DNA of 64,000 bases from Mobula hypostoma (taxonomy: Eukaryota), in the NCBI RefSeq assembly GCF_963921235.1, contig NC_086097.1, positions 7,688,001 to 7,752,000 of the forward strand, given 5' to 3'. Shown here piece by piece: positions 2,239 through 63,200 of the stretch. A program made the position numbers and the translations under genes. Below the pieces are notes generated by a model that saw only the letters and a list, made by a program, of their open reading frames with translations, was not told the DNA's origin and searched no databases. Every line of letters begins with the position of its first letter. Position 1 is the stretch's first letter.

Positions 2239-5200
2239 AACATAGAACATAGAATAGTACAGCAAAATACAGGCCCTTCGGCCCACAATGTTATGCCGAC
2301 CCTCAAACCCTGCCTCCCATAAAACACCCCCACCATAAATTCCTCCATATACCTGTCAAGTAGTATCTTAAACTTCACGAGTGTATCTGCCTCCACCACT
2401 GACTCAGGCAGTGCATTCCACGCACAAACTACTCTCTGAGTAAAAAACCTTCCTCTAATAACCCCCTTGAACTTCCCACCCTTTACCTTAAAGCCATGTC
2501 CTCTTGTATTGAGCAGTGGTGCCCTGGGGACGAGGCACAGGCTATCCACTCTATCTATTCCTCTTAATATCTTCTATACCTCTATCATGTCTCCTCTCAT
2601 CCTCCTTCTCTCCAAACAGTAAAGCCCCAGCTTCCTTAATCTCTGATCATAATCCATACTCTCTAAAACAGGCAGCATCCTGGTAAATCTCCCCTGTACC
2701 CTTTCCAATGCTTCCACATCCTTCCAATAGTGAGGTGACCAGAACTGGACACAGTACTCCAAGTGTGGCCTAACCAGAATTTTATAGAGCTGCGTCATTA
2801 CATCGCGACTCTTAAACTCTATCCCTCGACTTATGAAAGCTAACACCCCATAAGAATTCTTAACTACCCTATCTACCTGTGAGGCAACTTTCAGGGATCT
2901 GTGGACATGTACCCCCAGATCCCTCTGCTCCTCCATACTACCAAGCATCCTGCCATTTACTTTGCACTCTGCCTTGGGGTTTGTCCTTCCAAAGTGTACC
3001 ACCTCACACTTCTCCGGGTTGAACTCCATCTGCCACTTCTCAGCCCACTTCTTCATCCTATCAATGTTTCTTTGCAATCTTCGTCAATCCTCTATACTAT
3101 CTACAACACCACCAACCTTTGTGTCATCTGCAAACTTGCCAACCCACCCTTCTACCCCGACATCCAGGTCGTTAATAAAAATCTCGAAAAGTAGAGGTCC
3201 CAGAACAGATCCTTGTGGGGCACCACTAGTTACAGCCCTCCAATCTGAATGTACTCCCTCCACCATGACCCTTTGCCTTCTGCAGGCAAGCTAATTCTGA
3301 ATCCACCTGGCCAAACTTCCCTGGATCCCATGCCTTCTGACTTTCTGAATAAGCCTACCATGTGGAACCTTGTCAAATGTCTTAGTAAAATCCACATAGA
3401 TCATATCCACTGCATTACCCTCATCTATATGCCTGGTCACCTCCTCAAAGGACTCTATCAGGCTTGTTAGACCATGATCTTCCCTTCACAAAGCCATGCT
3501 GACTGTCCCTGATCAGACCATGATACTCCAAATGCCCATAGGTCCTATCTCTAAGAATCTTTTCCAACTGCTTTCCCACCACAGACGTAAGGCTCACTGG
3601 TCTATAATTACCCGGACTATCCCTACAAACTTTTTTGAATAAGGGGACAGCATTCACCTCCCTCCAGTCCTCCGGTACCATTCCCGTGGACAATGAGGAC
3701 ACAAAGATCCTAGCCAGAGTCTCAGCAATCTCTTACCTCACCTCATGGAGCAGCCTGGGGAATATTCCGTCTGGTCCCGGGGACTTATCCATCCTAATGT
3801 ATTTTAACAACTCCAACACCTCCTCTCCCTTAATATTAACATGCTCCAGAACGTCAACCTCACTCATATTGTCCTCACCATCATCAAATTCCCTTTCATT
3901 GGTGAATACCGAAGAGAGTATTCATTGAAGACCTCGTTCACTTCCACAGCCTCCAGGCACATCTTCCCACCTTTATCGCTAATCAGTCCTACCTTGACTC
4001 CTGTCATCCTTTTGTTCTTCACATAATTGAAGAATGCCTTGGGGTTTTCCTTTACCCTACTCGCCAAGACCTTTGCATGCCCCTTTCTTGCTCTTCTCAG
4101 CCCCTTCTTAAGCTCCTTTCTTGCTACCATATATTCCTCAATAGACCTATCTGATCCTTGCTTCCTAAACCTCATGTATGCTGCCTTCTTCCACCTGACT
4201 AGATTTTCCACCTCACTTGTCACACCTGGTTCCTTCACCCTACCATTCTTTATCTTCCTCACCGGGACAAATTTATCCTTAACATCCTGCAAGAGATCCC
4301 TAAACATCAACCACATGTCCATAGTACATTTCCCTGCAAAAACATCATCCCAATTCACACCCGCAAGTTCTAGCCTTATAGCCTCATAATTTTCCCTTCC
4401 CCAATTAAAAATTTTCATGTCCTCTCTGATTCTATCCTTTTCCATGATAATGCTAAAGGCCAGGGAGAGGTGGTCATGTCCCCCAGACAGTCACCCACTG
4501 AGAGATCTGTGACCTGACCCAGTTCGTTACCTAATACTAGATCTAGTATGGCATTCCCCCTAGTCGGCCTGTCAACATGCTATGACAGGAATCCGTCCTG
4601 GACACACTTAACAAACTCTGCCCCATCTAAACCCTTGGAACTAATCAGGTGCCAATCAATATTAGGGAAGTTAAAGTCACCCATGATAACAACCGTTATT
4701 TTTCCACCTTTCCAAAATCTGCCTCCCAATCTGCTCCTCGGTATCTCTGCTGCTACAGGAGGCCTATATAATACTCCCAATAGAGTAATTGCTCCCTTCC
4801 TGTTCCTGACTGCCACCCATACTGACTCAAAAGAGGATCCTGCTACATTACCCACCCTTTCTGTAGCTGTAATAGTATCCTTGACCAGTAATGTCACCCC
4901 TCCTCCCCATTCCCCCACCACCCACTATCCCTTTTAAAGCACTGAAATCCAGGAATATTGAGAATCCATTCCTGCCCTAGTGCCAGCCAAGTCTCTGTAA
5001 TGGCCACTACATCATAATTCCATGTATGTATCCAAGTTCTCAGTTCATCACCTTTGTTCCTGATGCTTCTTGCATTGAAGTACACGCACTTTAGCCCTTC
5101 TACCTTACTACCTTTACATCCTTTATTTTGCTTCTCTTTCTTCAAAGCCTCTCTCTATGTTAGATCTGGCTTTACTCCATGCACTTCTTCTACTGCTCTA

Positions 5201-5688: not shown

Positions 5689-8279
5689 TTAGGAACAGGA
5701 AGGGGTGAATAACTCTACTGTGTTTTTTTTGTAGACCTCCCAATAGGGACATTGAGGAGTAGATAGGGATACAGATACTGGAAAGTTGTAATAATAACAG
5801 GGCTGTTGCGGTAGGAGATTTTAATTTCCCAAATATCGATTGGCATGTCCCTAGAGTGAGGAGTTTAGATGGGGTGGAGTCTGTTAGGTGTGTTCAGGGA
5901 GATTTCTTGACACAATATGTAGATAACCCTGCAAGAGGAGAGGCTGTACTTGATCTAGTATTGGGAAATGAACCTGGTCAGGTGTCAAATCTCTCAGTGG
6001 GAGAGCATTTTGGAGATAGTGATCATAATTCTATCTGCTTTTCCATAGCATTGGAACGAGATAGGAACTGACAAGTTAGGAAAGTGTTTAATTGGAGAAA
6101 GGGGAAATATGAGGCTATCAGTCAGGAACTTGATAGCATACATCGGGAACAGGTGCTCTCAGGAAAATGTACGGAAGAAATGTGGCAATTGTTCAGGGGA
6201 TATTTAAGTGAAGTTCTGCATAGGTACATTTCAATGAGCCAGGGAAAGGGTAGCAGGGTACAGGAACCGTGGTGTACAAAGTCTGTTGAAAATCTAGTCA
6301 AGAAGAAAAGAAAAGCTTACAAAAGGTTCAGAGAGCTAGGTAATGTTAGAGATTTAGAAGAATGTAAGGATAGTAAGAAGGAGCTAAAGAAAGAAATTAA
6401 GAGAGCCAGAAGGGGCCATGAGAAGGCCTTGGAAGGCAGGATTAAGGAAAACCCCAAGGCAGTCTACAAGTATATGAAGAGCAAGAGGATAAGATTTAAG
6501 AGAATAGGACCAATCAAGTGTGACAGTGGAAAAGTGCATATGGAACCAGAAGAGATAGCAGAGGTACATAATGAGTATTTTGCTTTAGTACTCACTACGG
6601 GAAAGGATCTTGGTGATTGTAAGGATGACTTACAGCGGACTGAAAAGCTTGAGCAAGTAGATATTAAGAAAGAGGATGTGCTGGTTTTTTTGGAAAGCAT
6701 CAAGTTGGAGAAGTCACTGGAACCAGATTGGATGGACCCCAGGCTATTGTGGGAGGAGAGGGAGGAGATTGCTGAGCCTCTGGCGATGATTTTTGCATCA
6801 TCAGTGGGCACGGGAGAGGTTCTGGAGGATTGGAGGGTTGCGGATGTTGTTCCTTTATTCAAGAAAGGGAGTAGAGATAGCCCAGGAATTAATAAACCAG
6901 TGAATTTTACTTCAGTGGTTGGTAAATTGATGGAGAAGATCCTGAGAGGCAGGATTTATGAACATTTAGAGAGGCATAATATGATTAGCAATAGGCAGCA
7001 TGGCTTTGTGAAAGGCAGGTTATGCCTTACGAGCCTGATTGAATTTTTTGAGGATGTGACTAAACACATTGATGAACGTAGAGTAGTAGATGTAGTGTAT
7101 ATGGATTTCAGCAAGGCATTTGACAAGGTACCCCATGCAAGGCTTATTGAGAAAGTAAGGAAGCATGGAATCCAAGCGGACATTGCTTTGCAGATCCAGA
7201 ACTGACTTGTCAAGAGAAGGCAAAGAATGGTTGCAGACAGGTCATATTCTGCATGGAGATTGGTCACCAGTGGTGTGCCTCAGGGATCTGTTCTTGGACC
7301 CCTACCCTTCAAGATTTTTATAAATGAACTGGATGAGGAAGTGAAGGGATGGGTTAGTAAATTTGCTGATGACACAAAGGTTGGAGGTCTTGTGGATAGT
7401 GTAGATGGGTGTCAGAGGTTACAGCAGGGCATCGGTAGGATGCAAAACTGGGCTGAGAAGTGGCAGATGGATTTCAACCCAGATAAGTGTGAGGTGGTTC
7501 ATTTTGGTAGGTCAAATATGATGGCAGACTATAGTATTAATGGTAAGACTCTTGGCAGCGTGGAGGATCAGAAGGATCTTGGGGTCCAATTCCATGGGAT
7601 ATTCAAAGTGTTGAGCAGCTTGACTCTGTGGTTAAGAAAGCATATGCTGCATGGTGTATTGGCCTTTATCAGTCAAGGGATTGAGTTTAGGAGCTGAGAG
7701 GCAATGTTGCAGCTATATAGGACCCTGGTCAGACCCCACTTGAAGTACTGTGCTTAGAACTGATTGCCTCACTACAGGAAGGATGTGGAAACCATAGAAA
7801 GGGTGCAGAGGAGTTTTACCAGGATCTTGCCTGGATTAGAGAGTGTGCCTTATAGAAATAGGTTGACTGATCTAGACCTTTTTTCCTTGGAGCAATGGAG
7901 GATGAGAGGTGACCTGATAGAGGTCTATAAGATGATGAGGGGCATTGATCGTTGGATAGTCAGAGGCTTTTTCCCAGGGCTGAAACATGAAGGGGCATAG
8001 TTCTAAGGTGTGTGGAAGTAGGTTAAGGTGGGATATCATGTGTAAGTTCTTCACACAGAGAGTGGTGGGTGCATGGAATACACTGCTAGCAGTGGTGGTA
8101 GAGGCGAATACAATAGGGTCTTTTAAGAGTCACTTAGATAGGTCCATGGAGCTTGGAATAATAGAGGGCTATGTGGTGGGGAAATTCTAGGCAGTTTCTA
8201 GAATAGTTTACATGGTCAGCACAACATTGTGGGTCAAAGGGCCTGTAATGTTCTGTAGATTTCTATGTTCTATGTTCTA
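5689..8279 (+). mobile_element. CR1 LINE, rest of ORF2 and 3' tail (right half of the interrupted element)
   Basis: LDLVLGN/SDHN endonuclease end; 373-aa ORF with QHGFVKGR and [18 protein letters not shown] and KFADDTK; CTATGTTCTATGTTCTA tail. Confidence 0.95.
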
Positions 8280-21089: not shown

Positions 21090-22096
21090 GAAATGACATT
21101 AAACAATCTTGAATTTTAAATGTTCTCCCTACGGATGGATAGATTTCTTCAGGGCGCTATGGTTAAATTATAAATTGTAATAATTAATCTTTTAAAAACA
21201 ATTTTTGCTCTCTTTTTGCACTAGGTATTTAATTTATTATATATATATTTCTTATTGCAATTTATAGTTTTCTATGTTGTATACTGCTGCTGCAATAGAG
21301 CAAATTTAATGACGTGCTAATGAAAAAACAAATGAGATAAGCAGTGCAAAAAGAGAGGAAAAAATAGTGTGGTAGTGTTCCTGGGTTTATGGTCCATTCA
21401 GAAATCTGATGGCGGAGGAGAAGAAGCTATTTCTGAAACATTGAGTGTGTGAAGTTACCGTTTTCACTCTGCAAGACTCCGTGAGTATTTTGGAATAATC
21501 AATAAATGTTATTGATCAAAGTCATAAAGGAGCTGATTTTCTAAACTTTTAACAAGGAATGTACTCTGCCTGTGGAAGCCACAGTAAATTAGCAATGTGC
21601 TATTTTTCTGCATTTTTGCCATGACTTTGAAATATATATGACTTTGCAGAAAAATATCTCATGTCCAGCAATTTGCTTTTATGCTTTTAAGCAAAAATGT
21701 ACTAAGGAATGTAATTGGATGACACAAAGGCAAAGAAATAGATATTAAGGCAGGTGCCTAAACTTTTGGCTAAAGAGTTACTTTGTTGAGCGTTCTTGAA
21801 GCAGAACAGATGGATGGTGGGTGTGGGCAGCTTTATGATGAGAATATCAGAGGCAAATGGCATTATGTCATAACTTATGGCAAAGAAAACTAAATGTAAA
21901 AGTCATGGGATTATGCTTGTGTTTTCTAAGGCACTTGTGAAAGCACATCTGGAATTCTATGCACACTGCTGATCTCTATATTGAGAGAAGGATGTAAACA
22001 TATTGAAAGTAGTTCAGACAAGCCTTACCAGATGAAAATCTGGAATGGCAGTTTATTTTATGAGAGATGGATGAACAAGTTTGGGTTACAACAGTG

Positions 22097-22930
22097 CAAC
22101 ACACAAGGGTACTGGAGCAACTCAGCAGGTCAGTCAGCATCTAAGGAGAAAAATCAACATTTCAAGTTGAGGCCCTTTAGTAGGACATGAAAGCAAGAGA
22201 GGTGAGAGCCCTTATAAAAAAAATGTGGCAGAGCAAATAGAATGTGGAGTTCTGAAGTATAAGAATTGGCGGGGGGGAGGGAAGGAACTCATTGAAACCT
22301 TTCAAATATTGGAAATACACTGTACTACACAGAATGGAAGTGGAGAGAATGTTTCCTGTAGTGGGTGAGTCTAGGACCAGAGAGCACAGCCTCAGAATAG
22401 GTGGATGTCCATTTAAAACAAAGATGAGGAGGAATGCCTTTAACCAGAGGGTGGTGAATCTGTGAAAGTCATTGCCACAGACAAACATGGAGGCCAGGTG
22501 TTTGGGTGTATTTAAAACAGAGGTTGATAGTTCTTGATTCATGAGACTGCCAAAAGCTATGTAGAGAGTGCAGAAGAATTAGGTTGAGAGGGATAATAAT
22601 TCAGCCTTGATGGAATGGTGGAGCAGACTCGATGGGCTGAATGCCCTAATTCTGCTCCCATCTTATGGTCTTGAGAGTTGGTGTATGATAGGTGGATCCA
22701 GGTGAGGAGGGTGGAGTGAGAGGAACATAAGAACTTGGAAAGAGACAGGTGGAAGTGTCAAAGGGATGAAGAAGATGGAATCTGATCGCAGAGGTCAGTG
22801 GACAATGCAATGAAGGGAAGGGGATGAGGAGGTGAATAGGTAGGAGAAATATGCGGGAGATGTGCAGATAAGTTGGGCAGGGGAGGGGAAAGAGATGGGA
22901 TGATGGGGGTCAGAGGGATAAGGGGAAAAC
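22097..22930 (-). mobile_element. Penelope-like pLTR relic interrupted by a plus-strand CR1 3' fragment (about 22285-22672)
   Basis: GGAGCAACTCAGCAGGTCAG..CAGCATC motif shared with 32070, 38430 and 44260; purine-rich pLTR body resumes after the CR1 tail. Confidence 0.65.
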
Positions 22931-22972
22931 AAATCAGTTGTGGCTTAAAAAGAGTGAGTGGACTTGACTAAG

Positions 22973-23410
22973 CATAAGACCATAAAACAGAGGAGCTGAA
23001 TAAGGCTATTTGGCCAATCAAGTTTGCTCCACCATTTCATCATGGCTGATTTATTATCCCTCTCAACTTAATTCTCTTGTCTTCTCCCCGGGAACCTATG
23101 ACACCCCGACTAATCAAAAAACCTCCATCCTCTGCTTCAAATATACCCAGTGTCTTGGTCTCTACAGCCGTCTGTGGCAATGAACTCTACAGATTCACGA
23201 CCCTCAGGCTAAAGAAATCCTTCTTATCTCTGTTCTAAAAAGACATCCTGTATTCTTTGGCTGTGCCCTCTGGTTTTAAGCTCCCTCACGCCAGGAAACA
23301 TCCTCTCCATGTTCACTGTATCTAGGCCTTTAAATATTCGATAGGTTTCAATGAAATTCCCCCCCCCACCGCCCCGCCACAACACACTGCTCATTTTTCT
23401 CAACTCCAGC
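22973..23410 (-). mobile_element. CR1 3' fragment
   Basis: IETYRIFKGLD..MERMFP..TRGHS motif; ATAAGACCATAA tail. Confidence 0.8.
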
Positions 23411-37430: not shown

Positions 37431-38379
37431 GAGCATTCACAGTAAATACACAGAAACACAGTAGAATAAATGGAAAAATGCACAAAAGATGGATAAAAAT
37501 CAAATGTGCAAAAGACAATAAATTGAGCATATACAAAAAATAATAATAATAATAATAATAGAAAACATTAAAAATCTACACAAATACAGATAAGACTTCT
37601 AAGGATATACTTTCATTAATAAAAACAGGAATCAGTTCCGAGCAATTGACGAATGAGCGTGCTTGGTTATACCCGTACCTCAGGCTTTACCATCTTGAGC
37701 TGAGAAAAAATATGAATAATAATAATAAATAAGCAATAAATATTGAGAACATAAGATGAAGAGTCCTTGAAAGTGAGTCCATAGGTTATGGGAATAGGTT
37801 AGTGATGGGGCAAGTGAATTTAAGTGAATTTATCCCTGCTGTTTCCAGAGCCTGATGGCTGAGGGGTAATAACTGTGGTGTGAATCCTGATGCTCCTGTA
37901 CCTTCTTCCTGATGGCAGCAGTGAGAAGAGAGCACGGTCTGGGAGTGGGAGTTATTGATGATGGATGCTGTTTTCCTGCAACAGTACTGCATGTTGATGT
38001 TCTCAGTGGTGGGGAGATATTTACTTGTGATGGACTGCGCTGTATCCATTACTTTTTGATGGATCCAGGACAATTTTTCTCATTGTGGCACTGTTATTCT
38101 CGTTTTTTAAAAGTACTGACTCTAATGTGGGAGTGGATGTGATATTCAAAATAGGCATTCAAAAGTTGCTGTCTAATTCGTCCATTCTGAGGTTGCAAGA
38201 TAGCCTCCACATTACTTCCCTTAACTCCAATGGATGCTCTGAAATTCTTGTGAGAGCATAAACTCTATAGCAAACTAATATTTATATGAAATAAATGTAT
38301 TAACTAACTATTTCAGACAAAATATTGTAATGTTCTTTTATGATATGGTTATAAATTAATTTAAGATTGAACAATTTCA

Positions 38380-38510
38380 AACATGAGAAAATCTGCAAAT
38401 GCTGGAAATCCAAATCAACACACACAAAATGTTGGAGGAACTCAGCAGGCCAGGCAGCATCTATGGAAAAGAGTAAACAGTCGACGTTTCAGGCTGAGAC
38501 CCTTCATCAG
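38380..38510 (-). mobile_element. Penelope-like pLTR fragment with intact hammerhead core
   Basis: Minus strand reads CTGATGA AGGG TCTCAG CCT GAAA CG TC GACTG (38478-38510). Confidence 0.85.
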
Positions 38511-39164
38511 AGCAATCCGCAAGTGCTGCCACACTTCCAGTGCCAACATAGCATGCTCACAACTCACTAATCCTAGCTCTTCATCTTTGAAATGTGGAAG
38601 GAAAGCAGAGCACCCAGACGAAATCCAAGTGGTAACGAGGAGAACGTACAAACTCTGAACCCCAATCTTAACACAGCTCTACAGTACCATCCATTCAAAC
38701 ACTCTCACTTGAAGTCTGAACCACCACATTTCTATACTCCCATTGTGGTTTTACTTGTTAGTTCAGGTCTTATAAAGCTTATCCCTCTCTTAAAATTTCT
38801 CAGATTATTTTTCCCTCCCTTTATTTATCATTTGGTATCTGATCTAACAGTGGATTGATCAATTCTACTCTCCACTCATCCATGAGCTTTTAATTCCATT
38901 TATTTACTTTTTATTTATTTGGAGATACAATACAAAACAGGCCTTCCAACCCAATGAGCTGCACCACCCAGCATCCCACTGATTTAACCCAAGCCTAATC
39001 ATGGGACAATTTACAATGTGCAATTAACCTACTAACTGGTACTGGAAAAAAAATGGCAGAGGCATTTTAAGTTTAAAGGAAACCATAACAGCTCCTGTAT
39101 TGTCTTCCAAACACAGAACATAAAGCGTGATAGAAAAAACTTCATATAATTTTGTCAGTGCATT

Positions 39165-39696
39165 AAAGGTCCAGGCCTGACTGTGGTCTTTTGTCGGGCG
39201 CCGGACGCTCGGAGAGATTCGGCAGGGGGCCGTGGTTGAGTGGTCAGCGACTTGGGCCGGATCCCCTGCTGGACTGGAGAGAAGGGTGTGAGGATACCCA
39301 GCAAGACAGAAAACAAACAAGACCTGACAAAGGGCGGATGAGCTCCTTGTGAGCCAATGGCCATCTTCCGTGGAAGAGGTTAAAGCCTCACCACGTATCT
39401 ACGAATCGTATGCTATGCACCTAGTTAGAGGAGACATGATGAACTTGGGCGCTGCACCGTGTGCCTGGACCTGCCCAAGGCCTCCGCCTAAGGGAAGGCC
39501 GAACTCGAAAAAGCGGCCACGGCTGGAGGCTGACACGGCCTCGGGCTCGAGTTCGGCAGGGGCGGCGGTGGGGTGCCAAGGTGGCCAACGAGAACAAACT
39601 GGAGGAGAGGCTGTACTCGGTGCTGTCACAAGATCGAAAAAGATGGAGGTGCATAGCCACCAACCCCAGATTCGGGACGGCACCCACTGACTGACT
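39165..39696 (+). mobile_element. RTE-type non-autonomous element interrupted by a gene fragment
   Basis: Removing 39449-39626 restores GDMMNLAQDRKRWRCIATNP, an RTE-like C-terminus (AQDR..WR), followed by an (ACTG)n tail. The 5' boundary is approximate. Confidence 0.6.
39451..39626 (+). pseudogene. ZFTRAF1: Circularly permuted fragment of ZFTRAF1/CYHR1 N-terminal coding sequence
   Basis: Encodes [11 protein letters not shown], then PNSKKRPRLE...[12 protein letters not shown] (one frameshift, one stop). Vertebrate ZFTRAF1 reads PPKKRLR...[25 protein letters not shown] (from recall). Confidence 0.85.
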
Positions 39697-40459
39697 AAAG
39701 GATATGGCGAGAAGGCAAGTATATGGAGTTGAGTGGAATCTGGGATCAACCGGGATGGAATGGTGGAGCAGACTGGATGGGCTGAAAAGCCTTATTCTGC
39801 TCCTCTGTCTTATGGTCTGATGGTAATAGCATCATGCTAATCACTATGCTAATCACGGAGCAGCAGTGAACCATCTGATTGGCCTATCACAGTTCTCTTT
39901 GGGATCTAGTTGACTTGATCAGCATTTCTGATCTGGCTATTGCTCACGACTGCACTTAATAAAAAAGGACTTTGCTAGTGTGGTGCCATAATTTCACAAT
40001 CCTTCAACTGGATGGTTTAAATCTGAGGTTCTTCCTTCTCTATGATAATACCAACTCATTTTTGCAATTCGCCACACTTGAATGTGAAGGCCAAAGTTAT
40101 CTACAGTAGACACAGTAGGATAATGTATTACAATGTTGTGGTTCTGTGTGTTTATTGCCTTTATTGTATATACAGGCTAACAAACATGTTACACAATAGA
40201 ATTTACTTCCATTTTTTTAGTTACCTCCTCACGGCTTGTTTCCTTTTACAGAACAATAAATCAGGAAGTTGTCAATGCTCTGATGTTTCATTTTTCTGGT
40301 AACATCTTAGAATCAGGATCAGAATCAAGTTTAATGTCACTGGCATATGTCATGACATTGGTTGTTTTTGCAGCAGTAGCAGATTGCAATACATCATAAT
40401 AAAAAAAACTATAATAAGAAATATAAATATTAAAAAAAGTAAGAAGATGATGGATACTG

Positions 40460-45639: not shown

Positions 45640-48600
45640 TAAGTGTGAGGTGGAACCCAGATAAGTGTGAGATGGTTCATTTTGGTAGGTCAGATATAAT
45701 GGGAGAATAGTACGACCTTTGGCAATGTGGAGGATCAGAGGGATCTTGGGGTCTGTGTCCATAGGACACTCAAACATGCCGTATAGGTTGACAGTGTGGT
45801 TAAGAAGGCATGCAGTGCATTGGTCTTCATCAACCATGGGATTGAGTTCAAGAGCTGAGAGGTAATGTTACAGCTGTATAGGACTCCGGGCAGACCCCAC
45901 TTGGAGTACTGTGCTCAGATCTGGTCACCTCACAACAGGAAGGATGTGGAAACTATAGAAAGAGTGCAGAGATTTACAAGGATGTGGTTTGGATTGGGGA
46001 GCATGCCTGACAAGAATAGAAACATAGAAAACCTACAGCACAATACAGGTTCTTCGGCCCACAGAGGTGTGCCAAACATGCCCCTGCCTTAGAAATTACT
46101 AAGCTTACCTACAGCTCTCTATTTTATTAAGCTCCATGTACCTATCTAAAAGTCTCTGAAAAGACCCAATCGTATCCACCTCCACCACCGTTGCTGGCAG
46201 CCCATTCCATGCACTCACCAACTCTCTGAGTAAAAAACTTACCCATGACATCTTCTCTGTACCTACTCCTCAGTACCTTAAACCTCTGTCCTCTTGTGGC
46301 AACCACTTCAGCCCTGGGAAAAAGCCTCTGACTATCCACACGATCAATGCCTCTCATCATCTTATGCACCTCTATCAGGTCACCTCTCATCCTCCGTCGC
46401 TCCAAGGAGAAAAGGTCAAGTTCACTCAATCTATTCTCATAAGGCATGCTCCCCAATCCAGGCAACAACCTTGTAAATCTCCTCTGCACCCTTTCTATGA
46501 CTTTCACATCCTTTCTGTAGTGATGCGACCAGAACTGAGCACAGTACTCCAAGTGTGGTCTGACCAGGGTCCTATATAGCTGCAACATTACCTCTTGGCT
46601 CCCAAATTCAATTCCATGATTGATGAAGGCCAATACACCATACACCTTCTTAAACGCAGAGTCAACCTGCGCAGCTGCTTTGAGTATCTTATGGACTCAG
46701 ACCCCAAGATCCCTCTGATCCTCCACACTGCCAAGAGTCTTACTATTAATACTATATTCTTCCATCATATTTGACCTACCAAAATGAACCACTTCACACT
46801 TATCTGGGTTGAAGTCCATCTGCCACTTCTCAGCCCAGTTTTGCATCCTATCAATGTTCCGCTGTAACTTCTGACAGTCCTCTACACTATTCACAACACC
46901 CCCAACCTTTGTGTCATCAGCAAACTTACTAACCCATCCCTCCACTTCCTCATCCAGGTCATTTATAAAAATCACAAAGAGTAAGGGTCCCAGAACAGGT
47001 CCATGAGGCACACCACTGGTGACTGACCTCTATGTAGAATATGACCCATCTACAACCACTCTTTGCCTTCTGTGGGCAAACCAGTTCTGGATTCACAAAG
47101 CAATGTCCCCTTGGATCCCATGCCTCCTTACTTTCTCAATAAGCCTTGCATGGGGTACCTTATCAAATGCCTTGCTGAAATCCGTATACACTACATCTAC
47201 TGCTCTTCCTTCATCAATGTGTTTAGTCACATCCTCAAAAAATTCAATCATGATTGTAAGGCACGACCTGCCCTTGACAAAAGCACACTGACTACTCTTA
47301 ATCATTTTATACCTCTCCAAATGTTCATAAATCCTTCCTCTCAGGATCTTCTCCAACAACTTACCAACCACTGAGGTAAGACTCACTGGTCTATAATTTC
47401 CTGGGCTATCTCTACTCCCTTTCTTAAATAAAGGAACAACATCCGCTACCCTCCAATCCTCCGGAACCTCTCTCGTCCCCATTGATGATGCAATGATCAT
47501 TGCCAGAGGCTCAGCAATCTCCTTCCTCACCTCCCACAGTAGCCTGGGGTACATCTCATCCGGTCCCGGTGACTTATCCAACTTGATGCTTTCCAAAAGC
47601 TCTTTCTTAATATCTACATGCTCAAGCTTTTCAGTCTGCTGCAGGTCATCACTACAATCACCAAGATCCTTTTCCATAGTGAATACTGAAGTAAAGTATT
47701 CATTAAGTACCTCTGTTATTTCCTCCGGTTCCATACATACTTTCCCACTGTCGCACTTGATAGGTCCTATTCTTTCACATCTTATCCTCTTGTTCTTCAC
47801 ATACTTGTAGAATGCCTTGGGGTTTTCCTTAATCTTACCTGCCAAGGCCTTCTCATGGCTCCTTCTGGCTCTCCTAATTTCTTTCTTAAAGCTCCTTCCT
47901 ATTAGCCTTATAATCTTCTAGATCTCTAGCATTACCTAGCTCTCTGAACCTATTGTAAGCTTTTCTTTTCTTCTTGACTAGATTTACCTTTGTACACCAC
48001 GGTTCCTGTACCCTACCATAACTTCCCTGTCTCATTGGAAGGTACCCATGCAGAACTCCACACAAATATCCCCTGAATATTTGCCACACTTCTTCCGTAC
48101 TTTTCCCTGAGAACATCTGTTTCCAATTTAAGTCTCCAATTTCCTGTCTGATAGCCTCATAATTCCCATTACTCCAATTAAACGCTTTTCTAACTTCTCT
48201 GTTCCTATCTCTCTCCAATGCTATTGTATAGGAGATAGAATTATGATCACTATCTCCAATATGCTCTCCCACTGAGAGATCTGACACCTGACCAGGTTCA
48301 TTTCCCAATACCAAATCAAGTACAGACTCTCCTCTTGTAGGCTTATCTACATATTGTGTCAAGAAACCTTCCTGAACACACCTCGCAAACTCCACCCCAT
48401 CTAAACCCCTTGCTCTAGGGAGATACCAATCGATATTTGGGAAATTAAAATCTCCCATCACGACAACTCTGGCATTATTACACCTTTCCAGAATCTGTTT
48501 CCCTATCTGCTCCTCAATATCCCTGTTACTATTGGGCGGCGTATAAGAAACACCCAGTAAAATTATTGACCCTTTCCTGTTCCCAACCTCCACCCACAGA

Positions 48601-50619
48601 GACTCCGTAGACAATCCCTCCATGGCGTCCACCTTTTCTGCAGCCGTGACACTATCTCTGATCAACAGTGCCACGCCCCCACCTCTTGTGCCTCCCTCCC
48701 TGTCCTTTCTGAAACATCTAAAACCCGGCACTTGAAGTAACCATTCCTGTCCCTGAGCCATCCAAGTCTCTATAATGGCCACCACATCATAGCTCCAAGT
48801 ACTGATCCACGCTCTAAGCTCATCCGCTTTGTTCACAACACTCCTTGCGTTAAAATAGACACATCTCAAAGGTTCGGTCTGAGCCCATCCCTTCTCTATC
48901 ACCTGCCTATCCTCCCTCTCGCACTGTCTACAAGCTTTCTCTATTTGTGAGCCAACCCCGCCTTCCCCAGTCTCTTCAGTTTGGTTCTCACCCCCACAAC
49001 AATTCTAGTTTAAACTCTCCCCAGTACCTTAGCCAACCTCCCCACCAGGATATTGGTCCCCCTGGGATTCAAGTGCAACCCGTCCTTTTTGTACAGGTCA
49101 CACCTGCCCCAAAAGAGGTCCCAATGATCCAGAAATCTGAATCCCTGCCCCCTGCTCCAATAACTCAGCCCTTCATTTATCCTTCACCTCATTCTATTCC
49201 TATTCTCACTGACGCGAGGCACAGGCAGTAATCCCGAGATTACTACCTTTGAGGTCCTGTTTCTCAACTTCCTTCCTAACTCCCTGTAGTCTTTTTTCAG
49301 GACCTCTTCCCTTTTCCTACCTATGTCATTGGTACCAATATGTACCACGACCTCTGGCTGTTCTCCCTCCCACTGCAGGATATCTTGGATGTGATCTGAA
49401 ACATCCTGGACCCTGGCACCTGGGAGGCAAGCTACCACCCGAGTTTCTTTCCTGCATCCACAGAATCGCCTGTCTGACCCCCTAACTATAGAGTCCCCTA
49501 TCACTGCTGCCATCCTCTTCCTTTCCCTACCCTTCTGAGCCGCAGAACCAGGCTCTGTGCCAGAGGCATGGCCACTGTTGCTTCCCCCAGGTAGGCTGTC
49601 TCGCCCAACAGTACTCAAACAGGAGTACTTATTGTCAAGGGGCACAGCCACCGGGGTACTCTCTAGTACCTGACTTTTCCCCCTCCCCCTCCTGACTGTG
49701 ACCCACTTGTCTGTCTCCCATTGCCCCAGTGTGACCACCTGCCTACAACTCCTTTCTATCAACTCCTCACTCTCCCTGACCAAGCAAAGGTCATCGAGTT
49801 GCATCTCCAGTTCCATAACTCAGTCCCTTAGGACCTGCAGCTCGACGCACCTGGTGCAGATATGGCCGTCCGGGAGGCTGGGAGACTCCAGGACCTCCAA
49901 CATCTGACACCGAGCACAGAAAACTAGCCTCACACACCTACTTCCTCCTTTCTGCAAATAACACAGTTAAACCTACCTTGCCTTGTCCTGTTACCGCCTA
50001 AGCCCGCTGAGCCAAAGCCCTATCACTCAGCTGCCTGCTCCAAATGCTGCACACTGGATATGGCGGCCTTCTTTTTAAACCTTTCGCGCTCTGCTGCTGA
50101 CGTCATGCGCCTGTGCATTCTCACCTCTCTTTTACCCCGAGTAGTAAAGAACTCCATTTGCTCCAAAAAATCAGCTGTTCACTCGCAGCCTTCTTATAGG
50201 TTGAGTGAACTTGGCCTTTTCTTCTTGGAGCAACAGAGGATGAGAGGTGACCTAATAGAGGTGTTTAAGATGATGACAAGTATTGATTTTGTGGATAGTC
50301 AGAGGCTTTTTCCCAGGGCTGAAATGGCTAGTGCGACAGGGCACGGTTTTAAAGTGCTTGGAAGTAGGTACAGAGGAAATGTCAGGGGGATGTTTTTTAC
50401 ACAGAGAGTGGTGAGTGTGTGGAATGGGCTGCCAGCGACTGTGGTGGAGGCAGATAAAATAGGGTCTTTTAAGAGATTCCTGGAAGGTACAAGGTGCTTA
50501 GAAAAATAGAGGGTTATGGGTAACCCTAGGGATTTCTAAGGTAAGGACACGTTCGGCACAGCATTGTGGGCCGAAGGGCCTGTATTGTGCAGTGCGTTTT
50601 CTATGTTTCTATGTTTCTA
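45640..50619 (+). mobile_element. CR1 3' fragment split by a near-full-length antisense CR1 (host parts 45640-46019 and 50196-50619)
   Basis: RPHLEYCAQIWSPH..GSMP before the insertion; RLSELGLFFLEQQRMRGDL and a (CTATGTTT)n tail after it. Confidence 0.9.
46020..50195 (-). mobile_element. Near-full-length CR1 LINE: 5' UTR, ORF1 (zinc finger/leucine zipper plus SGNH esterase), ORF2 (EN-RT), all with lesions
   Basis: ORF1: CARC..CTRC, LEMQLDDL, VIGDSIVRG, VHIGTNDIG. ORF2: 338-aa EN ORF, NYRPVSLTS, DFSKAFD, KFADDTK, RPHLEYC. ATAG at both junctions. Confidence 0.95.
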
Positions 50620-60219: not shown

Positions 60220-63200
60220 AGCAGGCAGGTGATGGGACTTAGGTGCAGCCAGCAGGTTGAGTGTCAAATCATTAGAGATGCAGAGTCAGAAAAGGTGGCA
60301 AATACGGTACTCAAGGTTTTGTATCTAAATGCAAGTAGTATAAGAAATAAGATAGATGATCTTGTTGCAATATTACAGACTGCCAGGTATGATGTTGTGG
60401 CCATCACTGAACCGTGGCTGTAGGATGGTTGTAGTTGGGAGCTGAATGTCCAAGGTTATGCGTTGTATCAGAGGGACAGGAAGGTAGGCAGAGGGGTTGG
60501 TGTGGCTCTACTGGTAAACAATTGCATCAAATCAGTAGAAAGTTGTGACAAAGGATCGGAAGGTGTTGAATCCTTGTGGGTTGAGTTAAGAAACTGCAAG
60601 GGTAAAAGGACCCTGATGGCATTTATATACAGGCCTCCCAACAGTGGCTGGGAGGTGGACCACAGGTTACAGCAGGAAATAGAAAAGGCATATCAAAAGG
60701 TTCACCAGATTGATTCCTGGGATGGCAGGTCTTTCATATGAAGAAAGACTGGATGAACTGGGCTTGTACTCGTTGGAATTTAGAAGATTGAGGGGGGATC
60801 TGATTGAAACGTATAAGATCCTAAAGGGATTGGACAGGCTAGATGCGGGAAGATTGTTCCCGATGTTGGGGAAGTCCAGAACGAGGGGTCACAGTTTGAG
60901 GATAGAGGGGAAGCCTTTTAGGACCGAGATTAGGAAAAACTTCTTCACACAGAGAGTGGTGAATCTGTGGAATTCTCTGCCACAGCAAACTGTTGAGGCC
61001 AGTTCATTAGCTATGTTTAAAAGGAAGTTAGATATGGCCCTTGTGGCTACAGGGGTCAGGGGGTATGGAGGGAAGGCTGGGTTCTGAGTTGGATGATCAG
61101 CCATGATCATAATAAATGGCGGTGCAGGCTCGAAGGGCCGAATGGCCTACTCCTGCACCTATTTTCTATGTTTCTATGTTTCTAAAAGGGCAATGTTATG
61201 GTAGTCAAGGGAGATTTTAAAATGCAGGTTGAACGGGAAAACCAGGTTGGTAATGGATCTCAAGAGAGTGAGTATGTTGAATGCTTAAGAGATAGCTTTT
61301 TAGAGCAGGTTATCCTTGAGCCTACTAGGGAATCAGCTACACTGGATTGGGTGCTATGTAATGAACTGAAGGTGATTAGGGAGCTTGAAGTAAAAGAACC
61401 CTTAGGAACCAGTGATCACAATATGATTGAGTTCAACTTGAAATTTGACAGGGAGAAAGTATAGTCTGATGTAGCAATATTTCAGTGGAGTAAGGGAAAT
61501 TACAGTGGTATGAGAGAGGAGTTGGCCAAAGTAAATTGGAAGGAGCTGCCAGCAGGTATGACAGCAGAACAGCAATGGCGTGCATTTCTGGGAAAAATGA
61601 GGAAGGTGCAGGACGTATGTATTCCAAAAATGAAGAAACACTCAAATGATAAAGTGGTACAACCGTGGCTGACAAGGGAAGTCAAAGCTATTGTAAAAGC
61701 AGAAGAAAGGGCATACAACAAAGCAAAAATTAGTGGGAAGGTAGAGGATTGGGAAGCTTTTAAACTACAGAGAGCAGCTAAAAATCATTAGAAGGGAAAA
61801 GATGAAATACGAAAGCAAGCTAACAAATAATGTCAAAGTCAGTAGTAAAAGTTTTTTCAAGTATATTAAAAATACAAGAGAAATGAGAGTGGATATAGGA
61901 CGACTAGAAAATGAGGCAGGAGAAATAATAACGGGGGACAAGGAGATGACTGATGAACTAAATGAGTATTTTGCATCAGTCTTCACTGTGGAAGACACAA
62001 GGCCTGATGTTGTAGTATTTGAAGGAAGAGAAGTGGGTGCAGTTGCTGTTACAAGAGAGAAGGTGCTCAAAAAACTGAAAGACCTAAAGGTACATAAAGC
62101 ACCCAGACCAGATGAACTGCAACCTAGGGTTCTGAAAGAGGCAGCGCTAGAGATTGTGGTGGCATTAGAAATGATCTAACAAAATCTTTGGATTCTGGCG
62201 TGGTGCCAGAGAACTGGAAAATTGCAAATGTTACTCCACTCTTTAAGAAAGGAGGAAGGCAGCAGAAAGGAAATTATAAACCAATTAGCCTGACCTAAAT
62301 AGTTGGGAAGATGTTAGTGTCAACTGTTAAGGATAAGGTGATGAAGTATTTGTTGACACAGGACAAGATAGTACAAAGTCAGCATGGTTTCCCTCAGGGA
62401 AAATCCTCCCTGTCAAAACTGTTGGAATTCTTTGAGGAGATTACAATAGGATAGATAAAGGGGATGTAGTGGATGTTGTATATTTGGACTTTCAGAAGAC
62501 CTTTGACAAGGTGCCATGCATAAGGCTGCTTACCAAGTTAAGAGCCCATGGTATTATAGGAAAGTTACTAACATGGTTACAGCATTGGCTGATTGCCAAG
62601 AGGCAACGAGTGGGAATAAAAGGATCCTTTTCTGATTGGCTGCCAGCAACTAGTGGTGTTCCGCTGGTGTTGTGACCACTTCTTTTTATGCTGTATATAA
62701 ATGATTTAGATGATGGAATAGATGGCTTTGTTGCCAAGTTTGTAGATGACACAAAGATTGGTGGAGGGCCAGGTAGTGTTGAGGAAACTGGTAGGATGCA
62801 GAAGGGTTTAGACAGATTAGGAGAATTGGAAAGAAGGTGGCAAATTAAATACAATGTTGGAAAATGCATGGTCATCAACTTTGGTAGTAGAAATAAATAT
62901 GTGGACTATTTTCTAAATGGGGAGGAAACCCAGGAACCTGAGATGCAGAGGGACTTGGGAGTCCTTGTGCAAAACACCCTGAAGGTTAACTTGCAGGTTA
63001 AGTTGGCTGCGAGGAAGGCAAATTCCATGTTAGCATTCATTTCAAGAGGTCTAAGATACAACAGCAGGGATGTGATGCTGAGGCTTTATAAGGCACTGGT
63101 GAGGTCTCACCTTGAGTATTGTGAACAGTTTTGGGCCCCTCATCTTAGAAAAGGTGTGCTGGCATTGGAGAGGGTCCAGAGGAGGTTCACAAAGGTGATT

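Follow-up and report, generated by a model that had tools for sequence, protein, structure and literature searches.

We analyzed a 64,000-nucleotide stretch of the Mobula hypostoma genome (contig NC_086097.1, positions 7,688,001 to 7,752,000; hereafter the window). Positions 39170-39695 of the window almost certainly represent one copy of a high-copy non-autonomous retrotransposon, built from an internally deleted long interspersed nuclear element (LINE) and a 178-nucleotide (nt) lap of the first exon of ZFTRAF1 (also CYHR1). Within this lap, the two halves of the gene piece are circularly swapped: the downstream half (A) comes first and the upstream half (B) second, while the gene has B then A. 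It is nearly certain, judging from the sequences of the copies, that the gene piece was captured once, in the founder of the family, from the lineage's own gene. We are as confident that the repeat was amplified in trans by its partner LINE through target-primed reverse transcription. The family comprises roughly a thousand copies in this genome. The parts of the window copy, all on the forward strand, are as follows.

39164..39169, +, 5' target-site duplication TAAAGG; the identical hexamer follows the tail at 39696-39701
39170..39695, +, the element itself, a non-autonomous LINE deletion derivative of nearly full length (526 bp) comprising head, gene lap and tail; homology to 19 other copies over ~39184-39704
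39170..39450, +, head: partner-LINE 5' untranslated region (UTR) and first codons, with small rearrangements; 39238-39438 is 82% identical to LINE copy L091
39451..39490, +, segment A: downstream part of the gene piece, from ZFTRAF1 exon 1 (coding positions 284-323); 39/40 identical to the parent locus L024
39490..39491, +, internal loop-closing junction, ...CCTA/AGG... (here and below, a slash marks a join or boundary); a blunt join lacking both filler and shared bases
39491..39626, +, segment B: upstream part of the gene piece, from ZFTRAF1 exon 1 (coding positions 146-283; ..EGPSSKKRPRLEAD... to the first base of the Cys codon); 124/138 identical to L024
39627..39695, +, tail: last ~70 nt of the LINE open reading frame (ORF) (..QDRRRWRCIA.NP.FGTAPTD, then the stop), ending in (TGAC)n; 97% identical to the 3' end of L091

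The gene piece occupies positions 39451-39626. It starts with GC TGC ACC GTG TGC CTG GAC CTG CCC AAG GCC TCC and ends with ...AAA CTG GAG GAG AGG CTG TAC TCG GTG CTG T, the final T being position 39626; direct reading confirms that both ends are as the original prediction for this site had described them. To locate the parent gene, the 3.48-Gb genome was searched with one batoid ZFTRAF1/CYHR1 protein as the query. Four exon matches place ZFTRAF1 on the minus strand of a single contig (C5, 227.93-228.09 Mb, loci L021-L024), where the gene spans ~158 kb and, according to the positions of the exon matches, has a first intron of ~91 kb. In BLASTN comparisons with the exon-1 locus (L024), segment B aligns from position 1691 down to 1554 (124 of 138 nt identical) and segment A from 1553 down to 1514 (39 of 40). 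The two segments abut in the gene at 1554/1553 with neither overlap nor gap, and the permutation has neither lost nor duplicated a base, which bears out the claim that the end of the piece joins seamlessly to its start. The possibility that the parent gene is itself permuted or tandemly duplicated, raised with the prediction as grounds for abandoning it, was looked at. The order of the gene proved normal, with a colinear, single exon 1 that has no tandem duplication.

The coding part of exon 1 is 327 nt long, and the gene piece corresponds to coding positions 146-323, i.e., 178 nt in both the parent and the family consensus. In the window copy, a 2-nt deletion in segment B (the gap in ggtg--gggtgcc) shortens the piece to 176 nt and shifts the frame. 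The single mismatch of segment A (C at 39487, T in the parent) is fixed in the family, with C in 64 of 69 copies. As predicted, the opening point lies inside the first Cys codon of the CCTVC motif, after its first base. Exon 1 ends GTC TAC CAG/gtacag, with the donor CAG/gt directly after the residues VYQ, and exon 2 starts ...cggcag/TGCACGAAT. The exon boundary that the prediction had placed after VYQ is therefore correct, and batoid proteins show the ZFTRAF1/CYHR1 order that it had given to be right as well. When the 122-codon frame of a sister copy was used as a protein query, three matches were obtained, all of them batoid ZFTRAF1/CYHR1 (E values of 3.5e-9 to 5e-5), with 35 of 53 residues identical in BLASTP. 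Both the protein search and BLASTN on this genome's own locus thus identify ZFTRAF1 as the best match. All 98 repeat matches to the ZFTRAF1 protein fall within residues 43-113, and the longest upstream extensions have low identity; the gene-derived sequence is limited to coding positions 146-323, and both of its flanks are LINE sequence. The source lies at the 5' end of the gene and is rich in GC and CpG, CpG dinucleotides covering 40 of the 178 positions of the piece. No LINE-derived sequence was found within 1.5 kb of the parent exon 1.

The original prediction treated the GC-rich piece as an insert peculiar to this site, and here the genome contradicts it. Searches for the gene piece, the head module, and the tail gave 925, 899, and 1227 first-look candidates, respectively, and the best 40 of each list were scored. 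The scored non-self matches to the 176-nt piece (39 of 39) all carry it in permuted form, at 91-93% identity over at least 174 of the 176 nt, and the full-length gene piece is present in 70 of the 83 loci that we fetched. The repeat unit is ~530 bp, and its copies are flanked by differing target-site duplications; a word of at least 7 nt is common to the 5' and 3' flanks in 18 of 35 copies, compared with 7.2% of 1698 mismatched control pairings. Full-length copies begin ~300-329 nt before the gene piece. The distance from the 5' end to the gene piece varies between 41 and 329 nt in a set of 25 copies, with a cluster near 300, a pattern of 5' truncation, while the 3' ends are constant, lying 67-84 nt after the piece in (TGAC)n. 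The 5' truncations, the constant (TGAC)n ends, and the target-site duplications are the marks of target-primed reverse transcription.

The arrangement of the modules is equally uniform. The head and tail searches contributed 29 further loci each. Among the loci found with the head, 28 of 29 have the module order H1-H2-A-B-T, and the remaining one (L078) is interrupted after the head; those found with the tail comprise 19 whole units, five that begin inside segment B, and five with the tail only. A head joined directly to a tail, with no gene piece between them, occurs at none of these 58 loci, a count made without a dedicated two-motif search and one in which diverged relatives lacking the insert could have escaped the scoring of the best 40.

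Compared with the permuted sequence of the living gene, the majority consensus built from 69 copies has substitutions at 3 of 178 sites and no insertions or deletions; at these three sites, the gene has T 4 nt before the internal junction, T at lap position 85, and G at lap position 150. So close a match indicates a single capture from the lineage's own gene. Since the batoid ZFTRAF1/CYHR1 proteins are only 66% identical over the piece, the capture would postdate the split from those batoids. Over the 178-nt piece, the 69 copies diverge from their own consensus by 5.6% on average. The divergence reaches 15.2% at CpG positions and is 2.85% elsewhere, a five-fold excess that is expected if the repeat copies are methylated in the germline.

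The flanks of the gene piece identify the partner. Four of the five tail-only loci run upstream into a LINE ORF (...YDNVRQWTGLSYAEARKRAQDRRRWRC...), which ends in ...YDNVRQWTGLSYAEARKRAQDRRRWRCIATNPRFGTAPTD with the stop codon lying in the (TGAC)n tail. This ORF carries a reverse transcriptase domain (RVT_1, E value of 2.9e-28), and the endonuclease family PF14529 is found in relatives of its N-terminal half. The LINE measures at least 3.36 kb in the copy L091, i.e., ~3.4 kb, and its interior yielded 55 first-look candidates, compared with 899-1227 for the modules of the derivative. In LINEs of the RTE clade, a single ORF of ~3.2-3.4 kb codes for both a reverse transcriptase and an apurinic/apyrimidinic (AP)-type endonuclease, the 3' UTR is very short, and the tail consists of short tandem repeats. 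By its size, single ORF, and repeat tail, the partner may be RTE-type, a provisional label based on these clade features rather than on a tree.

The head of the repeat is the 5' end of the same LINE: the head module is 88% identical to L091 and runs into the LINE ORF. In an alignment of seven LINE 5' regions with ten derivative heads, the sequences are common up to ...GATGAAC(C/T)TGGGC and then diverge, which marks the breakpoint. What the derivative retains of the LINE is thus a 5' stretch of ~280-330 nt and, at the other end, the final ~70 nt of the ORF, including the (TGAC)n tail. Relative to the LINE, the derivative head lacks stretches of ~113, 7, and 10 nt, and a piece of ~25 nt is inverted (L073:1286-1500 compared with L091:3585-3990 and L095); the 7-nt and 10-nt deletions adjoin the gene piece on its upstream side. 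Either further template jumps in the founder or changes that the master copy underwent afterwards could account for these head rearrangements.

With regard to its class, the repeat has several features of SINE-like (short interspersed nuclear element) LINE derivatives: it has the 3' tail of its partner, 5' truncation, high copy number, and no capacity to code for a reverse transcriptase. A head transcribed by RNA polymerase III (pol III) was looked for in the window copy, which has deletions in its head. ARAGORN reported 0 genes at 39100-39800, and Rfam at E values up to 1 gave two chance-level matches in that copy, far below the gathering scores (21.5 versus 70 and 16.1 versus 40). Lacking a pol III head (tRNA, 5S, 7SL, or small nuclear RNA), the repeat is not a SINE in the strict sense. 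Its sole ORF, of 122 codons, gave no family match above the cut-off, and among 97 candidate proteins, none of near-equal length matched its 122-residue product at an E value of 0.001 or less. This frame lies at 39330-39695 of the window, where it is frameshifted, and can be followed in other copies (e.g., L002:1436-1801, minus strand). It leads from the first codons of the LINE (..SYAMHLVRRDM..) through A in the +1 frame and B in the true ZFTRAF1 frame to the last 22 codons of the LINE and its natural stop. The frame is open over at least 115 amino acids in 33 of 65 copies. This openness was considered and rejected as evidence of selection or function, as the number of open copies is close to a rough estimate for neutral decay. 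Literature searches, which covered open-access papers and preprints, found no description of the element and, among the matches listed, nothing that links CYHR1/ZFTRAF1 with a repeat; the element may have a name in Repbase or Dfam.

The junctions of the gene piece bear directly on how the founder was made. In the family consensus, the internal junction reads ...GCCTCCGcCTA/AGGAAGGG. On the A side, the parent reads ...GCCTCCGTCTA/CCAG/gt, so that 4 nt separate the junction from the exon-1 donor; on the B side, it reads ...GCTGG/AGGAAGGG, a start 146 nt into the coding sequence, in the middle of the same first coding exon. The join is blunt, with 0 nt of microhomology and no filler. At the boundary of B and the tail, the derivative reads ...GCTGT/CGCAAGATCG (...GCTGT/CGCAAG) and the LINE reads GAGCGCAAGATCG, with 0 shared bases and again no filler. 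At the boundary of head and A, the derivative reads ...TTGGGC/GCTGCACC, and the LINE continues with CCCC in four of seven copies and GCC in one; the microhomology is 0 nt, or 2 nt if the GCC variant was the source.

The original prediction had proposed to read the origin of the piece from its internal junction: an exon donor joined to an AG acceptor would point to a circular RNA (circRNA), and microhomology at other positions would point to extrachromosomal circular DNA (eccDNA). Neither signature was found. The A side stops 4 nt before the donor and the B side starts in mid-exon, and no base is shared between them. Had the donor been back-spliced to the cryptic GGAG/ within the exon, the product would read ...GTCTACCAG/GAAGGG, i.e., ...CTACCAG/GAAGGG. 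The family consensus, ...GCCTA--AG GAAGGG, lacks the CC and has a T>C change nearby, which amounts to three edits within ten bases relative to the back-spliced product. The rest of the piece (~170 nt) carries only two differences, and a single substitution is enough if the join is a blunt CTA/AGGAAGGG. The internal junction is neither a clean back-splice nor a microhomology join.

If the breakpoints of A and B had arisen independently, their exact adjacency would have a chance of ~1/327 within the coding part of exon 1 alone, and less over the whole transcript. Independence is therefore improbable, and the gene piece appears to have behaved as a loop, its outer ends joined and opened once; such a closed-loop topology is the simplest reading of the exact permutation. 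The original prediction had spoken of a captured circle. Its loop topology holds up in the founder element, while capture at this locus does not, given about a thousand copies and flanks that are the ends of a LINE. A template that was joined and then opened and one that was cut and then copied in swapped order give an identical sequence, which by itself provides no order of events. For the same reason, copying from RNA and insertion of a nucleosome-sized DNA circle, the two origins to which we give the most weight, are inseparable from sequence alone.

We tentatively favor the view, based on the structure of the copies, that the founder arose through serial template jumps of the LINE reverse transcriptase within a single reverse transcription. 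The enzyme would have copied the last ~70 nt of the LINE RNA and then jumped onto a ZFTRAF1 exon-1 RNA that behaved as a loop. This template may have been a closed RNA circle or, more simply, a 178-nt fragment cut once in a hairpin loop, with its halves still base-paired. Exactly one lap would have been copied, the half ending at the cut first and then the other half from its 3' end. The enzyme would have stopped where its own complementary DNA (cDNA) began, or at the end of the fragment, before jumping back to the LINE RNA ~300 nt from its 5' end and running to that end. We count in favor of this view the sense orientation of the gene piece relative to the LINE and the direct, filler-free form of all three gene-related junctions. 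The additional discontinuities of the head (gaps of ~113, 7, and 10 nt and the inversion of ~25 nt) are also what would be expected from jump-prone reverse transcription. The predicted structure of the 178-nt RNA has the opening point (nt 138/139) within a hairpin loop of 6 nt; of its 58 base pairs, 27 bridge the two halves and would hold them together after a cut. The fold lends weak support, since 62 of the 178 nt are unpaired, giving about a one-in-three chance of a position in a loop, and its energy is unremarkable (z of -1.85). The steps themselves have precedents. LINE reverse transcriptases are reported to jump twice between templates and so produce tripartite chimeras (PMC2104539), and serial template jumping by non-LTR reverse transcriptases (LTR, long terminal repeat) is reported as well (PMC8594491). 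According to Dong et al. (PMC4897178), open-ended structured RNAs with close ends can yield non-colinear retrocopies.

Several observations weigh against serial jumping from RNA. Exonic RNA circles usually stem from splicing, which does not apply here, as the internal junction is not a splice junction. No microhomology would have guided the jump at the boundary of B and the tail (0 nt), and only 0-2 nt, depending on the LINE variant, are available at that of head and A. In the predicted fold, the outer ends of the 178-nt piece are unpaired, with no stem bridging them; neither the energy of this fold nor the position of the opening point, a matter of about one in three by chance, singles it out. 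The rearrangements of the head may have arisen after the founder, in the master lineage. Finally, a nucleosome-sized DNA circle would match the length of 178 nt, the origin in exon 1, and the richness in CpG more closely than any expectation for RNA does.

Such a DNA origin is a serious possibility, although we rather doubt it. An extrachromosomal circle of ~180 bp (microDNA or eccDNA) from the CpG-rich first exon of ZFTRAF1 would have been cut open once, in the first Cys codon, and would then have served as filler, ligated into a genomic LINE copy at a double-strand break or 2.9-kb deletion. That copy, keeping its promoter end and its 3' recognition end, would then have become the master of the family. 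That the 178-bp piece was a covalently closed, nucleosome-sized circle shed from this exon in the germline, opened once and stitched into a LINE copy, is conceivable and likewise doubtful. In a variant without any circle, two adjacent DNA fragments would have been ligated in swapped order. A single cut of a circle accounts for the exact permutation with no loss or gain, and the blunt form of all junctions is compatible with end joining. The source is of a suitable kind too, since microDNAs are reportedly enriched in GC- and CpG-rich 5' regions of genes, as Shibata et al. are said to have found in 2012. The length of 178 bp also fits: circles of ~180 bp and ~360 bp, from nucleosome-protected fragments, dominate the germline eccDNA of mouse and human, according to PMC10581685. 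The same text reports microhomology-mediated joining as the main route to germline eccDNA, although the loop-closing junction here has no microhomology. Moreover, the sense orientation relative to the LINE would be only one of two outcomes, and a large deletion with filler would be required in precisely the LINE copy that became the master. To our knowledge, the heritable re-integration of such a small circle is undocumented, and the relevant passage of PMC10581685 speaks only of DNA transposons. A canonical back-spliced circRNA, formed between the exon-1 donor and the cryptic AG acceptor (GGAG/GAAGGG) and copied for one lap, with its junction altered later, is very unlikely. It draws support from segment A, which ends just 4 nt before the donor, from the AG that precedes GAAGGG on the B side, and from the existence of circRNA-derived pseudogenes with non-colinear junctions, including 33 copies of one circRNA that are flanked by long terminal repeats (LTRs) (PMC4897178). 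This origin would nonetheless require a 2-nt deletion and a substitution within 10 nt, against 2 differences in the remaining ~170 nt, and its acceptor would have to be a site within the first coding exon that follows ...AACCAACCGGCCCGAGCTGGAG, by our reading not a pyrimidine tract. We consider it similarly improbable that there was no loop and that two independent template switches or fragment captures hit adjacent bases by chance. Multi-jump chimeras do exist (PMC2104539), and with about a thousand descendants of one founder, a single rare accident would suffice. Against this stand the low chance of exact adjacency given above, the shared orientation of the two pieces, and their origin in one 178-nt span. 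A private capture of a circle at this site, an assembly chimera, and a parent gene already in permuted order have nothing beyond the local sequence in their favor. We regard them as excluded by the other copies, with the permuted piece in every scored non-self match, full length in most fetched loci, and differing target-site duplications around the copies, and by the colinear, single parent exon.

The element can be compared with several known systems. In LINE template-switch chimeras, such as U6-L1 and the tripartite pseudogenes of Magnaporthe (PMC2104539), the 3' end of a LINE is likewise fused directly and in the same orientation to sequence copied from a cellular RNA, a single insertion can contain two or more template discontinuities, and target-site duplications surround the whole unit. 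All of these features are present here. Our element differs from these chimeras in that its cellular part is a circularly permuted single lap rather than a colinear copy and in that its cDNA returns to the 5' end of the LINE itself. With this return, both ends needed for expression and mobilization were kept, and a family of about a thousand copies followed. The circRNA-derived pseudogenes of Dong et al. (2016; PMC4897178) are similar in being non-colinear gene copies confined to one closed transcript span, as is the case here, and in the many copies of one source (33 for circRFWD2, with flanking retroelement sequence); those authors also propose open-ended structured RNA as an alternative template. 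Their junctions, however, are annotated exon-exon back-splices, whereas that of our element lacks the splice sites and lies within a single first coding exon, and its carrier is a LINE deletion derivative rather than LTR-flanked sequence. Nucleosome-sized germline eccDNA, or microDNA, as characterized in PMC10581685, resembles the piece in its size class (~180 bp, here 178 bp), in its derivation from a GC- and CpG-rich 5' gene region, and in that one opening gives an exact permutation, but the closing junction here is without microhomology. Such circles are described as extrachromosomal by-products, and we found no description of their heritable re-insertion followed by retrotransposon amplification in the open-access literature.

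Non-autonomous, internally deleted LINE derivatives and composite elements include the BovB-derived Bov-A2 and Bov-tA, HAL1, and SVA with its MAST2 exon variants. As in elements of this type, a short unit with the 3' recognition end of the partner LINE is mobilized in trans and outnumbers its partner; mobilization of SVA in trans is reported (PMC3287187). In contrast to these elements, the interior of our element is host-gene sequence in circular order, and there is no pol III head.

Other repeats surround the element in the window. A different interspersed repeat directly follows it at 39697-39824 and has matches of 71-85% identity at unrelated places in three other loci (L002, L008, and L019); a further locus (L015) matches the window across the boundary between the element and this repeat. 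Upstream, the sequences at 38378-38613 and 38911-39041 are interspersed repeats with 73-92% identity to several fetched loci, in both orientations. No tandem array scoring 200 or more was found in the 64-kb window. The GC skew of the window varies in kilobase-scale blocks of alternating sign, with values of -0.34 to -0.44 at 3001-5000 and 46001-50000 and of +0.31 to +0.43 at 6001-8000, 22001-23000, and 61001-63000.

The kinds of event behind this case, template-switch chimeras and circle-derived retrocopies, are known, and this locus holds one ordinary copy of a LINE-derived repeat that is abundant in the genome. Here, a base-exact, single-lap circular permutation of a gene fragment was captured and came to form the core of a successful mobile element. 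In practical terms, screens for circRNA or eccDNA junctions and the annotation of ZFTRAF1-like sequences in Mobula hypostoma would be swamped by this repeat. Small circles of RNA and DNA are abundant by-products of the cell, and their re-entry into the germline is largely an open question. With about a thousand descendant copies, the junctions of the founder can be read with confidence, and the family offers a datable test case of whether LINE reverse transcriptases run once around looped or nicked templates and of whether nucleosome-sized DNA circles can be re-inserted. If the founder did incorporate a DNA circle, the family would be a replicated fossil record of the heritable re-integration of a microDNA, and such circles would be able to seed mobile elements.

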